A stretch of DNA of 64,000 nucleotides, from contig JACTUC010000009.1 of NCBI GenBank assembly GCA_015660995.1, positions 2,008 through 66,007 on the forward strand. Reading direction: 5' to 3'. Under the pieces are notes generated by a model. That model had not been told where the DNA came from and made no database searches. It saw only the letters and a program-made list of their open reading frames with translations. Positions 1 through 7,625 of this stretch are shown here, piece after piece (within the stretch, counting starts at the first letter, position 1; every line of letters begins with the position of its first letter). The translations under genes and the position numbers were made by a program. Source of the stretch: Candidatus Methanomethylicaceae archaeon. GTDB lineage: Archaea > Thermoproteota > Methanomethylicia > Methanomethylicales > Methanomethylicaceae.

Positions 1-1473
1 GGCTGCCTCGCGTACGCGCCCAAGGCCCTTACCCTCGTCCACTTTGCCGTTAAACATCTGGCCCATGAAGCGAATTGTGTAAAAAATGGTCAATATTACC
101 GCGACCGATGCAACTGCAAAGAATAGATATTGACCGACCGCCCATGAAAAGCCTAGAATACTCTCTTTGCTCCAGAAGCCTGACAAAGGTGGGACCCCGG
201 CGAGCGCCAAGCCTCCTATCAACATGAAAAGCCAAGTGAAGCGCATGCTCTTCCTTGACAGCTTCATCTCAGAGATGTATATGGAGCCAGAAGCTTGGAT
301 CGCTATCCCAGCGCAGAGGAAGAGCCCGGCCTTGTAAACCCCGTGAGTTATCAGCTGGAATATGCCTGCAGACACTCCTGCGACCAAGGTATCGGGGCTT
401 AGACCCGCCACTCCGAGGGCGAGCATCATGTAACCGATTGTGCTCATAGTGGAGTAAGCCAGTATCTTCTTGAGCTCCTTCGCCACCATTGCCTGCGAAG
501 CGCCAAGGACAATCGTGATAGCGCCTGCCACAGCTACAAGAAGGAAGAATGTGAGTGCCTCTGGGTAACCTGGGGATGCAATCCATTCGGCAAAGAAGAA
601 TACGGGAAGCATGCGCGCAACCAAATACACACCAGCCTTAACCATCGTCGCCGCGTGTATTAGCGCAGATACCGGCGTCGGACCTGCCATTGCCTCTGGC
701 AGCCATTCATGGAACGGGAATTGGGCAGACTTGGTGAGTGGGCCGACGACAATGAGGACGGTCGTAATAGCCAAGATCCCGGGGCTCCTTCCCATTTGGG
801 CCAGCCAGACACCAGCCGTCTGGTATAGTTCCATGAAATTGAACGTGCCAGAGTATGTGTAGAGTATTATTATGCCTGCAAGGAGCGCTATGTCTCCAAA
901 GGTTGTCACGATCAGGGCCTTGAGCCCGGCCCTAGAAGGTTTCTGAAATGCGAAGGGTACTGGACCGCCGATCCAGTGCTCCCTATCGTCACTATAGTAG
1001 TAGCCTATAAGCCCATAGCTGCAAAGGCCAACGATCTTCCATCCCACGAAGAAGAGGATGAGGTTATCTGCCAGCGTGAGCAGCAGCATGCCCGCTATGA
1101 AGAGGGACATGAGGAACCAGTACCTACCTGCGGAACGGTCGCCCTCCACATATTTCAGTGAGTAGACCATAATCAGGAAGCTCAGGAATGCCACGATATT
1201 CACGACGATTATGCTCAATGGATCGACCAGCATCCCCAAGCCCACACTCCCGCCATTCGGGAGAGAGAACCAGAACAGCTTGATATCGGAATAGCCGCCG
1301 CCAAACAGGTTTGGAAGCATCAAGAGAGCCATTACTAAAGAAAGGAAGGAGAAGAGCACCACTGGCAAGCCCTTGACCCACGACTTCCTGCCTCGCAGAG
1401 CCAGCGGGAAGATCGATCCAACCGTAGGGAAGATCCAGCACAGCCACGATATGATATTTAGATCCAATGGCAT
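1..1473 (-). CDS. NuoL-like proton-pumping antiporter subunit of the complex-I-like cluster. The CDS is partial: its N-terminus (ATG) is at 1473 and its C-terminus lies beyond the window start.
   Basis: Translating the reverse complement from 1473 gives MPLDLNIISWLCWIFPTVGSIFPLALRGRKSWVKGLPVVLFSFLSLVMALLMLPNLFGGGYSDIKLFWFSLPNGGSVGLGMLVDP... with no stop before position 1. This resembles a NuoL/MrpA N-terminus. The ATG sits directly after the TAG of the upstream gene (TAGATG). It is missing from the ORF track because it runs off the window edge. Confidence 0.7.
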   Translation of the reverse strand, partial: MPLDLNIISWLCWIFPTVGSIFPLALRGRKSWVKGLPVVLFSFLSLVMALLMLPNLFGGGYSDIKLFWFSLPNGGSVGLGMLVDPLSIIVVNIVAFLSFLIMVYSLKYVEGDRSAGRYWFLMSLFIAGMLLLTLADNLILFFVGWKIVGLCSYGLIGYYYSDDREHWIGGPVPFAFQKPSRAGLKALIVTTFGDIALLAGIIILYTYSGTFNFMELYQTAGVWLAQMGRSPGILAITTVLIVVGPLTKSAQFPFHEWLPEAMAGPTPVSALIHAATMVKAGVYLVARMLPVFFFAEWIASPGYPEALTFFLLVAVAGAITIVLGASQAMVAKELKKILAYSTMSTIGYMMLALGVAGLSPDTLVAGVSAGIFQLITHGVYKAGLFLCAGIAIQASGSIYISEMKLSRKSMRFTWLFMLIGGLALAGVPPLSGFWSKESILGFSWAVGQYLFFAVASVAVILTIFYTIRFMGQMFNGKVDEGKGLGRVREAA

Positions 1474-2964
1474 CTACCCCATCACCTTTCCTGAAAAGGA
1501 GAAGAGAGCGGCTACCGACTGCTGCACGATTCTTATTACAGGGTCTGGCCACAACCCGATGAGGATAATAAGGGCGGCCATGAAGCAGATGGGCACAAGC
1601 AAGGCCAAAGGCGCTTCCCTAGCACTTGCAACCTTCTCGGACTTTATGGGTAGAATTAAGGTCCGCACGATCCGCAGGTAGAAGGCCGCTGAGAGGGCGC
1701 TATTCAGGATGACCGCAACCCCGAGCCAGGCCAAGTTTGACTGAAAAGCAGCAGTGACTATTATTAGCTCGCTCACAAAGCCGTTCAGCGGGGGCAAGCC
1801 GGTAAGAGCGAAGAGGGAAATAGCGAACGCTATAGCAGTGATGGGCATCTTGCGCCCTATCCCAGCCATCTCGTCCATCTGTCTAGTTCCGATGGTATAG
1901 AGTATGGCACCCGCGCATAGGAAGGCTGTGCCCTTCATAAGCGCGTGGTTGAGTAGGTGCAAGAATGTCCCCGTCAGCGCCAACTGTGTCCCTATCGATA
2001 AGCCAGCGAGCATGTAGCCAACCTGCGCGATGCTGGAGTATGCGAGGAGCCTCTTCAAGTCATTCTGGAGCAGTGGCATTACATTCCCCACGACCATGGT
2101 AATGACGCTCATTACCATCAGGATGCTGAGCCACTGAACCTGTACAGATAGGAACGCCGTGAAGCATATTCTGCAGAGAGCATAAACTCCGGTCTCAATT
2201 ACGACGCCAGAGAGCATTGCTGAGATGGGTGAGGGGGCAGCGGCGTGGGCATCTGGCAGCCATGTATGGAGGGGAACAATTGCAGTCTTTACACCAAAGC
2301 CCACAAGAATGAGAAGCGAGGCCAGATAGAGCCAAGGGTTTGGCGGGGCTTGACCAAAGGCGGAAGCCAAGCCTTGGAAGTTTAGAGTCCCGCTCATCCC
2401 GTACAGGAACGACATCCCCAAGAGGACTGTCGCTGAGCCAGCTCCGCTCATTATGAGGTATTTGAAGGCGGCCTCAATCGACTCCCCCTTCCTCCTCCTG
2501 AATGCAACCAGTACATAGGATGAGACGCACATGAGCTCCCAGAAGACGTACAGAGTAAAGAGATCCCCAGCGAAGACAATACCCACCATTCCGCTTATCA
2601 TGGCCAGCAGGAGCGTGAAATAGATTGGCACGCCAGTCTCCTTTTTCATGTACACAATTGAGTAGATCGCCACGGCAAAGCCAAGCCCGATGAAGATTGC
2701 AGCCATGAAGACGCCTAGCATGTCGATCCTGAGGTAAGCCGAGAACACCCCAATATGTGGGGAGGAGATCACCATATTTTGGGAGACTTCGAGGAAGAGC
2801 TCATAAAGCAAGACTCCTGCAATAGCCAGTCCTGCTGCCGCGTAGACACCGCATAAGACCTTCCTGTGAATCTTTAAGGCAGCCCAGCCAACAATGGGCA
2901 TGGAGACTGTAAAGACCAAAAGGAGATCGAGTGTCGGTGTGAACATTGTGGCTTGCTCCCTCAT
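1474..2964 (-). CDS. NuoN/NuoM-like antiporter subunit (NADH-quinone oxidoreductase chain N/M family)
   Basis: 496 aa with about 14 predicted TM segments. Conserved NuoM/N/MrpD-type motifs are present (WLPDAHAAAPSPISA, long hydrophobic helices). It overlaps nuoK by 4 nt. Confidence 0.8.
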   Translation of the reverse strand: MREQATMFTPTLDLLLVFTVSMPIVGWAALKIHRKVLCGVYAAAGLAIAGVLLYELFLEVSQNMVISSPHIGVFSAYLRIDMLGVFMAAIFIGLGFAVAIYSIVYMKKETGVPIYFTLLLAMISGMVGIVFAGDLFTLYVFWELMCVSSYVLVAFRRRKGESIEAAFKYLIMSGAGSATVLLGMSFLYGMSGTLNFQGLASAFGQAPPNPWLYLASLLILVGFGVKTAIVPLHTWLPDAHAAAPSPISAMLSGVVIETGVYALCRICFTAFLSVQVQWLSILMVMSVITMVVGNVMPLLQNDLKRLLAYSSIAQVGYMLAGLSIGTQLALTGTFLHLLNHALMKGTAFLCAGAILYTIGTRQMDEMAGIGRKMPITAIAFAISLFALTGLPPLNGFVSELIIVTAAFQSNLAWLGVAVILNSALSAAFYLRIVRTLILPIKSEKVASAREAPLALLVPICFMAALIILIGLWPDPVIRIVQQSVAALFSFSGKVMG

Positions 2965-7249: not shown

Positions 7250-7625
7250 GACGTTGAGCCTTGTTGGAGAGGCACTCAAACAACTTATGAGGAAGCCCAG
7301 CACGCTGAAATATCCTTCTGAGAAGGCGACTCCCCCACCAGGCTTCAGGGGTCTTCCAATCTGGGATATGAAGAAATGCATACTCTGTGTCCTCTGCCAA
7401 AATGCCTGCCCTCCAAGCGCCATAAAGCTGATCGGGAAGGGCCAAGAAGCCAAGGTTGAATATCATCTGGATCGGTGCATCTTCTGTGGAGAGTGTGTGG
7501 ATGCCTGCCCAGTGGATGCCATTACAATGAGCGGGCAGTACGAACTCGCTGGCAGTGACCGTTCCATAATGGTTCTCTGCTTTGGTAAGGAAAAGCCGGT
7601 GATTCCGGTTAAGAACGCACCTTGA
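7233..7625 (+). CDS. nuoI: NuoI-like 2x[4Fe-4S] ferredoxin subunit
   Basis: 130 aa with two CxxCxxCxxxCP motifs: CILCVLCQNACP and CIFCGECVDACP. Confidence 0.85.
   Translation: MDWECETLSLVGEALKQLMRKPSTLKYPSEKATPPPGFRGLPIWDMKKCILCVLCQNACPPSAIKLIGKGQEAKVEYHLDRCIFCGECVDACPVDAITMSGQYELAGSDRSIMVLCFGKEKPVIPVKNAP

Follow-up and report, generated by a model that had tools for sequence, protein, structure and literature searches.

A probable Hfo-type [NiFe] hydrogenase with a complex-I-like membrane arm in a Methanomethylicaceae archaeon

The gene cluster described here occupies positions 1-7625 of a 64-kb stretch of DNA from a Candidatus Methanomethylicaceae archaeon (contig JACTUC010000009.1; the whole stretch is called the window below), and its closest described relatives appear to be the Hfo hydrogenases. 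Loh, Hervé and Brune gave this name in 2021 to an Fpo-like, eleven-subunit [NiFe] hydrogenase that lacks FpoFO and retains both metal-binding motifs, L1 and L2 (PMC7886697). They placed Hfo in HydDB subgroup 4g (4g-6 together with sister groups, including Ca. Methanomethylicus), described near-identical Hfo-like clusters in Ca. Methanomethylicus mesodigestum and Pyrodictium delaneyi, noted that the MbhABCF Na+ module is missing, and concluded that Hfo is an 'evolutionary link' (PMC7886697). Among living enzymes, this class links the ion-pumping hydrogenases most closely with respiratory complex I; none of its members has been purified.

Related complexes keep different parts of this architecture. 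The ferredoxin-dependent Mbh of P. furiosus (group 4d, 6CFW) has no extra input module, one antiporter-like subunit and an Mrp Na+ module (MbhA-C and MbhF, equivalent to MrpE, F, G and B). In place of ND3 it has MbhI, which gives the loop element after the first transmembrane segment (TM1) that Nqo7 gives in complex I (PMC7684303). E. coli formate hydrogenlyase (FHL) and hydrogenase 4 (group 4a; HycE, 7Z0S, and Hyf) contain a formate dehydrogenase or HycB/HyfA partner, and FHL has neither ND3 nor ND6. Headless Fpo-like complexes (Methanomassiliicoccales, Methanothrix) and complex I/NDH-1 have lost the Ni ligands, bind cluster N2 through tandem cysteines and reduce quinone or phenazine. In Ehr and Mbx (Mbs) the NiFe-binding cysteines are lost as well.

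Gene content and metal site

We found eleven open reading frames (ORFs) in 1-7625, arranged as two divergent operons: the minus strand carries L (cut)-N-K-J2-J1 and the plus strand A-B-C-D-H-I. An earlier reading of the letters alone (the original prediction) had delineated the same two operons, and all of its ORF coordinates for the cluster were reproduced. The genes are intact and closely spaced or overlapping, as follows (aa, amino acids; PDB, Protein Data Bank).

1..1473, minus strand: NuoL-like antiporter subunit (L), N-terminal 491 codons, running off the window start; best PDB match E. coli NuoL, 3e-68
1474..2964, minus strand: NuoN/MbhH-like antiporter subunit (N), 496 aa; PF00361, 2.7e-80; best PDB match MbhH, 1.9e-86
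2961..3275, minus strand: NuoK/ND4L-like subunit (K), 104 aa; PF00420, 5e-18
3272..3547, minus strand: J2, MbhE-like second half of a split NuoJ/ND6, 91 aa; a weak assignment, by profile
3549..3803, minus strand: J1, MbhD-like first half of a split NuoJ/ND6, 84 aa; PF00499, 5.5e-13; PF13244, 2.5e-6
3804..3886, no strand: AT-rich divergent intergenic spacer, 83 bp, with TATA-like boxes read from the sequence
3887..4225, plus strand: NuoA/ND3-like subunit (A), 112 aa, three predicted TM segments; PF00507, 29.2 bits against a cut-off of 23.3
4229..4660, plus strand: hydrogenase small subunit/NuoB homologue (B), 143 aa; PF01058, 7e-32; MbhJ, 2e-51
4641..5123, plus strand: NuoC-like subunit (C), 160 aa; PF00329, 4.6e-26; 156 aa with other gene callers, whose start lies 12 nt downstream
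5131..6270, plus strand: [NiFe] large subunit/NuoD homologue (D), 379 aa; PF00346, 2e-69; PF00374, 7e-14
6293..7249, plus strand: NuoH/ND1-like membrane subunit (H), 318 aa; PF00146, 1.5e-93
7233..7625, plus strand: NuoI/MbhN-like subunit with two [4Fe-4S] clusters (I), the likely ferredoxin entry; two CxxCxxCxxxCP motifs, Pfam Fer4 families

Every cluster ORF except J2 fell into its expected complex-I family in Pfam above the curated cut-off, A weakly so. The start of I has alternatives, a TTG codon giving 130 aa and window position 7287 giving 112 aa. The TATA-like boxes of the spacer lie about 15-30 nt upstream of both start codons and are putative divergent archaeal promoters.

The rest of the locus was found on a JGI contig, Ga0116137_1000057 (L082 in our numbering of loci), which is identical to the first 16 kb of the window at 15995 of 16000 positions and reaches 4.9 kb further upstream. 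On it the full-length L has 681 aa (4298-6343), of which the window misses the last ~190 residues, and is followed by a third antiporter-like gene, M (495 aa), and then by phosphoenolpyruvate (PEP) synthase. The third antiporter gene for which the original prediction had proposed a search beyond the window start thus exists. Taking window and L082 together, the locus has 12 genes for 11 subunit types, J being split in two; the full eleven-subunit core that had been claimed holds at this scale, whereas the window by itself contains 10 of the 11 types. No NuoEFG, FpoF/O or HdrD genes flank the cluster on the L082 contig or in the window: its neighbours are PEP synthase on one side and acylphosphatase and ATP synthase genes on the other, in agreement with the predicted lack of an electron-input module.

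The large subunit, D, aligned end to end with E. coli HycE (9e-87, the top PDB match) and P. furiosus MbhL (5.5e-80). Its L1 pair, C67/C70 (RVCGICTSAH), and its L2 pair, C357/C360 (DPCFACMDR), stand in exact register with the Ni ligands of HycE (RVCGICGFAH and DPCYSCTDR) and MbhL (RMCGICSFSH and DPCLSCTDR), whereas the same columns of T. thermophilus Nqo4 read RMDYLH and DPVMGDVDR. Both [NiFe] ligand pairs are therefore where the original prediction had put them. Of the published group 4 motifs (L1, C[GS][ILV]C[AGNS]xxH; L2, [DE][PL]Cx[AGST]Cx[DE][RL]), the second is matched in full. E20 of D is the counterpart of the catalytic Glu of MbhL, E21, whose role is stated in PMC7684303, and both quinone ligands of Nqo4 are missing (H38 is replaced by K19 and Y87 by G68).

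The C-terminal tail that had also been noticed in D is real: 16 residues follow DPCFACMDR, and a tail of 6-32 residues is present in 119 of the 120 closest database homologues. Tails of the D family often start like the HycE peptide cleaved by HycI (M-x-[VI]-[VI]-D/G-x-K compared with MTVVDVRKK). Moreover, D scored below the NCBIfam cut-offs for NuoD (338.6 versus 360 for NF004739; 302.4 versus 459 for TIGR01962) and for FpoD (283 versus 600 for NF040602).

The small subunit follows the same pattern. All the cysteines of B (C21-x2-C24, C88 and C118) are in register with those of MbhJ, CNGC lying on CNGC, while NDH-1 subunit K and the complex I homologues have a three-residue gap and CC at this site; the contrast between CNGC and a tandem CC had been drawn correctly from the letters. 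By this alignment the cysteines of B are predicted to ligate one proximal [4Fe-4S] cluster.

Most probably, then, the cluster encodes a membrane-bound, ion-translocating [NiFe] hydrogenase of the Hfo type (Fpo-like, HydDB subgroup 4g), an assignment made through the published description, the identities of homologues and a rough neighbour-joining tree. With Hfo it has in common the eleven subunit types, the lack of FpoFO/NuoEFG and of MbhABCF, and the retention of L1 and L2; D is 69-75% identical to homologues from Methanomethylicaceae and Bathyarchaeota with the same gene layout. It differs in its two divergent operons, which some relatives also have, and in a Lys in TM5 of L that marks its subclade (see below). 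The original prediction could not place the enzyme in any characterised class and took a named subclass with this subunit set as an argument against its novelty; such a subclass, Hfo/4g, was named in 2021 (PMC7886697). Architecture, classification and evolutionary reading are thus already published, and the locus is most probably a further Hfo member.

Other identities were considered and rejected: Ech, which has six subunits and no ND3, ND6 or ND4L; FHL/Hyf, since the formate module is missing and HycD is a poor match; Mbh proper, since the cluster has no Mrp module; Ehr/Mbx, since the NiFe cysteines are present; and true Nuo/Fpo, for which both the motifs (CNGC instead of CC, no quinone ligands) and the NuoD/FpoD cut-offs fail.

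Membrane arm and relatives

When the subunits were scored against PDB structures and E. coli proteins, four were nearest to hydrogenases: D (HycE 295 and MbhL 272 bits versus Nqo4 220), B (MbhJ 177 versus NdhK 134), I (HycF 67 versus NuoI 56) and the 496-aa N (MbhH 294 versus ~170 for NuoN; further PDB matches were MbsH, NdhB and MrpD). Nearest to complex I/NDH-1 were H (NdhA 193, Nqo8 177 and NuoH 175 versus MbhM 80 and HycD 55) and L (NuoL 234 versus MbhH 120; NdhF, Nqo12 and MrpA also matched in the PDB). To this side also belongs A, for which a PDB search returned ND3/NuoA chains only (best 5.6e-4) and no MbhI. By these scores the enzyme looks like a mosaic of intermediate appearance. Together with the Ni ligands, the proximal cluster motif, the catalytic Glu, the tail and the hypA and hypE genes of the window, they bear out the idea of a hydrogenase built on a complex-I-type arm.

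Among individual residues of the arm, A keeps the PYACGED loop motif and the equivalent of NuoA D79, and K keeps the equivalent of NuoK E36 (GLEIMINA). An equivalent of NuoA E81 is missing from A. L is of the true NuoL type, with the long C-terminal extension. All three antiporter-like subunits have the TM7 Lys. At the TM12 position L has Lys, M and N have Glu; at the TM5 position N has Glu, M has Asp and L has Lys146.

The J subunit is less straightforward. The original prediction had proposed a check of the small membrane ORFs against ND3, ND6 and ND4L models, and A (PF00507), J1 (PF00499) and K (PF00420) matched as expected; J2 matched no Pfam or NCBIfam family. In the PDB, a profile of J2 homologues matched MbhE (E 0.028) and MbsE (0.064) alone, both weakly; J2 is kept in 17 related loci. 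J1 is about equally close to NdhG (3.9e-6) and MbhD (1.7e-5). In TM3 it has the Tyr of complex I (LLIYAGA), not the Na+-site Glu of MbhD and Mrp. Since NCBIfam also contains short split NuoJ models for archaeal Nuo/Fpo (82-96 positions), the split is not specific to hydrogenases. Neither is an ND6/ND4L pair specific to complex I, as had been supposed when Mbh was said to lack one: MbhD and MbhE are homologous to NuoJ (both match MrpA-C), and MbhG to NuoK (both match MrpC) (PMC7419157).

Of the known systems, Mbh has subunits that rank first or nearly so among the structural homologues of B (MbhJ), D (MbhL) and N (MbhH), and it shares the split ND6 equivalent, the Ni ligands, the catalytic Glu and the lack of an input module. 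Unlike Mbh, the cluster encodes a true NuoL among its three antiporter-like subunits, together with an ND3 homologue and an ND1-like H. The MnhE, F, G and B families were absent from it in Pfam searches; MnhE and MnhG are confined to the separate Ehb-like cluster described below. FHL provides the top match of D and a similar start of the tail; the cluster, in contrast, has no formate dehydrogenase or HycB/HyfA partner, its D is not fused to C, and HycD matches H poorly (55-77 bits). With the headless Fpo-like complexes and complex I it shares the 11-subunit set, a near-identical gene order, the closest relatives of H, L and A, and the lack of a dedicated NADH or F420 input module. Unlike them, and unlike Ehr/Mbx, it keeps all four Ni ligands; the CxxC of B is retained as well, and the quinone ligands H38/Y87 are missing.

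A scan covering one genome per species turned up D homologues at 80 loci, with identities of 51-82%. Their sources are Methanomethylicia, Bathyarchaeia, non-ammonia-oxidising Nitrososphaeria, Culexarchaeia, Jordarchaeia, Aminicenantes/Acidobacteriota and others; D is 69-82% identical to homologues of Methanomethylicia/Methanomethylicaceae and 69-75% to homologues of Bathyarchaeota. The four Ni-ligand cysteines were kept in all 79 loci that span both motifs, down to 51% identity, and in 119 of 120 database homologues. The divergent layout occurs in Methanomethylicaceae, Bathyarchaeia and further archaea, and the arrangement M-L-N-K-J2-J1 facing A-B-C-D-H-I recurs in loci L001 and L008 (Methanomethylicaceae), L013, L017, L019 and L020. 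In other lineages the order is a colinear ABCDHIJ(J2)KNLM, or (J)K-ABCDHI placed after three antiporter genes. In a rough neighbour-joining tree without support values, D of the window nests with the divergent-layout loci, and the D family stands apart from MbhL, HycE/HyfG, NuoD/Nqo4 and the second large subunit of the window. The large-subunit phylogeny called for by the original prediction is thus available in outline, as a tree of this rough kind.

Two subsets of the scan are of note. Twelve Bathyarchaeia loci (L004, L014, L016, L040, L041, L044-L046, L049, L051, L055 and L058) have short B-C-D-I or B-D-I clusters with D at 54-74% identity and the Ni ligands kept; no H, A, J, K or antiporter genes were detected near them, and these variants may be soluble or differently anchored. 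The bacterial loci L064-L080 (Aminicenantes/Acidobacteriota, Eubacteriales, Verrucomicrobiota) also keep the Ni ligands, with D at 51-54% identity; in them (J)K and then ABCDHI come after three antiporter genes. Bacteria as well as archaea thus have the 11-subunit hydrogenase architecture.

Function, direction and rival explanations

By homology with Mbh and FHL, reduced ferredoxin would dock on the NuoI-like subunit with its two [4Fe-4S] clusters, and electrons would pass from these through the single [4Fe-4S] cluster of the NuoB-like subunit to the Ni-Fe centre of D. There, at C67, C70, C357 and C360, with E20 as the proton relay, two H+ would be reduced to H2 in a reversible reaction. The redox step would be coupled, through the ND1/ND3/ND6/ND4L-like region formed by H, A, J and K, to the three antiporter-like subunits N, L and M, which would move H+. 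The most likely function, as judged from the genes, is that of a reversible ion-translocating ferredoxin:H+ oxidoreductase. H+ is more likely than Na+ as the coupling ion, because the cluster lacks the Mrp Na+ module and because Tyr takes the place of the Na+-site Glu in J1.

Several observations weigh against this reading. At the fifth position of L1, D has Thr, where the published motif lists A, G, N or S; homologues of D have S, T or N there. The original prediction had suggested looking for maturation protease genes nearby, but no HycI-type protease was found in the 64 kb, either with Pfam on ORFs of 130-180 aa or with tblastn using E. coli HycI. The hypA and hypE genes of the window could serve either or both of its hydrogenases, and possibly just the Ehb-like one described below. 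Part of the pump may differ from that of complex I: K has no counterpart of the second conserved Glu (NuoK E72), and in L the TM5 Lys146 (GWKIVG) replaces an otherwise near-universal Glu, E144 of E. coli NuoL (GWEGVG). This Lys is common to the eight closest orthologues (L001, L008, L013, L017-L020 and L024), while distant Hfo-like L subunits keep Glu. A survey of Yellowstone metagenome-assembled genomes, which found an 'Fpo-like complex', 'Ehb' and an A-ATPase in 6 of 6 Methanomethylicia genomes, gives the Fpo-like complex the role of a ferredoxin:HdrD oxidoreductase in its model. Finally, the 2020-2025 literature holds no biochemically characterised enzyme of subgroup 4g, so that activity, partner and coupling ion rest on homology.

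The energetics raise a further difficulty. Electron transfer from ferredoxin to H+ yields an estimated ~20-40 kJ per 2 e- (textbook redox values), enough for 1-2 H+. The four putative sites of complex-I type exceed this yield, and the arm would consequently be partly idle, re-tuned (the Lys of L being a candidate) or reversed. Re-tuning would mean a true complex-I-topology hydrogenase whose distal pump, with the TM5 Lys of L and without the second Glu of K, has had its H+/2e- ratio lowered or re-routed to suit the small ferredoxin/H2 gap, in a divergent-operon subclade centred on Methanomethylicia. We consider this possible but doubtful; if true, the Fpo-like complex of Methanomethylicia would be an H2-cycling device, not a ferredoxin:HdrD oxidoreductase.

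We slightly prefer the direction of ferredoxin oxidation, in which H2 would be released and the membrane charged for the adjacent A-type ATP synthase. The same enzyme could run in reverse, taking up H2 and using the membrane potential to drive its electrons to ferredoxin for anabolism or methyl reduction, and we give this a sizeable chance, if one short of even. The reverse direction would better suit an arm that has more pump modules than the small energy from ferredoxin to H2 calls for, and with a four-site arm more H+ inflow per 2 e- would allow ferredoxin to be reduced at very low H2. Eha and Ehb of methanogens work in the H2-uptake, ferredoxin-reducing direction. Methanomethylicia have been described as H2-dependent methyl-reducing methanogens without Mvh/HdrABC, which fits H2 uptake, and for the Hfo of acetogenic Bathyarchaeia this direction was argued by Loh et al. 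(PMC7886697). However, the window already has an Ehb-like cluster, a type usually given the anabolic role, and it is the Hfo-like cluster that adjoins the ATP synthase operon; no sequence feature fixes the direction.

Most papers on Methanomethylicia and Bathyarchaeia annotate such clusters as 'Fpo-like' respiratory complexes, and JGI calls many of the homologues 'NADH-quinone oxidoreductase subunit D'. On that interpretation electrons would go from ferredoxin to HdrD or a membrane carrier, and the NiFe-type cysteines would be vestigial or bind another ligand. The clear proximity of H, L and A to complex I/NDH-1 rather than to Mbh or FHL would agree with it. Nevertheless we regard it as very improbable: the four Ni ligands, the catalytic Glu and the C-terminal tail are under selection across 79 lineages, B keeps the hydrogenase-type CxxC, D has neither quinone ligand and falls under the NuoD and FpoD cut-offs of NCBIfam, and there is no hdrD or fpoF/O beside the cluster. 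A decaying or inactive relic, to which only the unusual Lys in TM5 of L and the missing second Glu of K could point, is hardly credible, given that the genes are intact and tightly packed or overlapping, that at least 23 public contigs from several samples encode an identical D protein, and that layout and ligands are conserved across phyla.

A hydrogenase at this locus leaves the question of how its modules are put together. The redox module of MBH attaches on the side opposite to that in complex I (PMC7419157), and in an enlarged Mbh without the Na+ module it would sit beyond the MbhH-like subunit, J and K being distal. N is indeed nearest to MbhH, J is split like MbhD/MbhE, and B and D are nearest to Mbh/FHL. 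Yet A, with its three TM segments, the PYxCG loop and the TM2 Asp, is homologous to ND3, H is far nearer to ND1 than to MbhM, J1 has the Tyr of complex I, L has the long extension of NuoL, and a split NuoJ also occurs in archaeal Nuo/Fpo. We therefore consider the Mbh arrangement unlikely, whereas the arrangement of complex I, favoured by the ND3-type A, the ND1-like H and the true NuoL, seems fairly probable.

If the hydrogenase assignment is correct, its relevance lies mainly in modelling the energetics of Methanomethylicia; with the class published in 2021, it opens no new question. The 'Fpo-like complex' of Methanomethylicia and of many Bathyarchaeia schemes keeps every Ni-Fe hydrogenase feature, which is often overlooked. 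Since neither the quinone ligands nor the N2-type cysteines are present in it, the HdrD-coupled schemes may be wrong. The locus adds a clean example from Methanomethylicia, placed beside an ATP synthase operon and an Ehb-like hydrogenase.

Neighbouring bioenergetic and maturation genes

Further along the window are the following features.

8947-17713: complete A-type ATP synthase operon (subunits H?, C, I, c, D, B, A, E and F-like), between the two hydrogenase clusters
17726-27493, minus strand: second group-4 hydrogenase cluster, Mrp/Ehb type
43222..43602, plus strand: HypA nickel metallochaperone; PF01155, 7.7e-28; TIGR00100, 90.9 bits against a cut-off of 88.1
44136..45185, plus strand: HypE, which acts in CN-ligand synthesis for the NiFe site; TIGR02124, 384 bits against a cut-off of 251.6

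The large subunit of the Ehb-like cluster has 398 aa, with L1 KVCGICSNVH, L2 DPCLTCCTR (Thr in place of D/E) and a 25-residue tail. The cluster also encodes a NuoH-like subunit (347 aa), a small subunit with CNGC, a NuoI-like subunit and two polyferredoxins, as well as MnhB, MnhC-like, MbhD, MnhG and MnhE subunits. The best NCBIfam match of its antiporter subunit was EhbF, at 371 bits under a cut-off of 578. It contains an MbhD-type and an ND4L-type subunit, contrary to the expectation of the original prediction that an Ehb-type layout would lack ND6 and ND4L. Three bioenergetic machines are thus found within the first 27.5 kb of the window.

The prolyl-tRNA synthetase of the window shares 65-70% identity with named proteins of Methanomethylicus, Methanosuratincola and Methanomethylicaceae and no more than 58% with any other named sequence, which places the source among the uncultured Methanomethylicia. 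Elsewhere in the 64-kb window, no hypB, hypC, hypD or hypF was found; a tRNA scan was empty, and no Rfam family reached the gathering threshold. Two plus-strand ORFs, 27657-28970 (437 aa) and 52363-53397 (344 aa), matched no Pfam family at E <= 0.05. A 145-aa ORF between hypA and hypE (43648-44085) has neither a family nor a PDB match; it is antisense to a candidate gene for ribosomal protein S8e, recognised by eye only, at 43666-44055 on the opposite strand.

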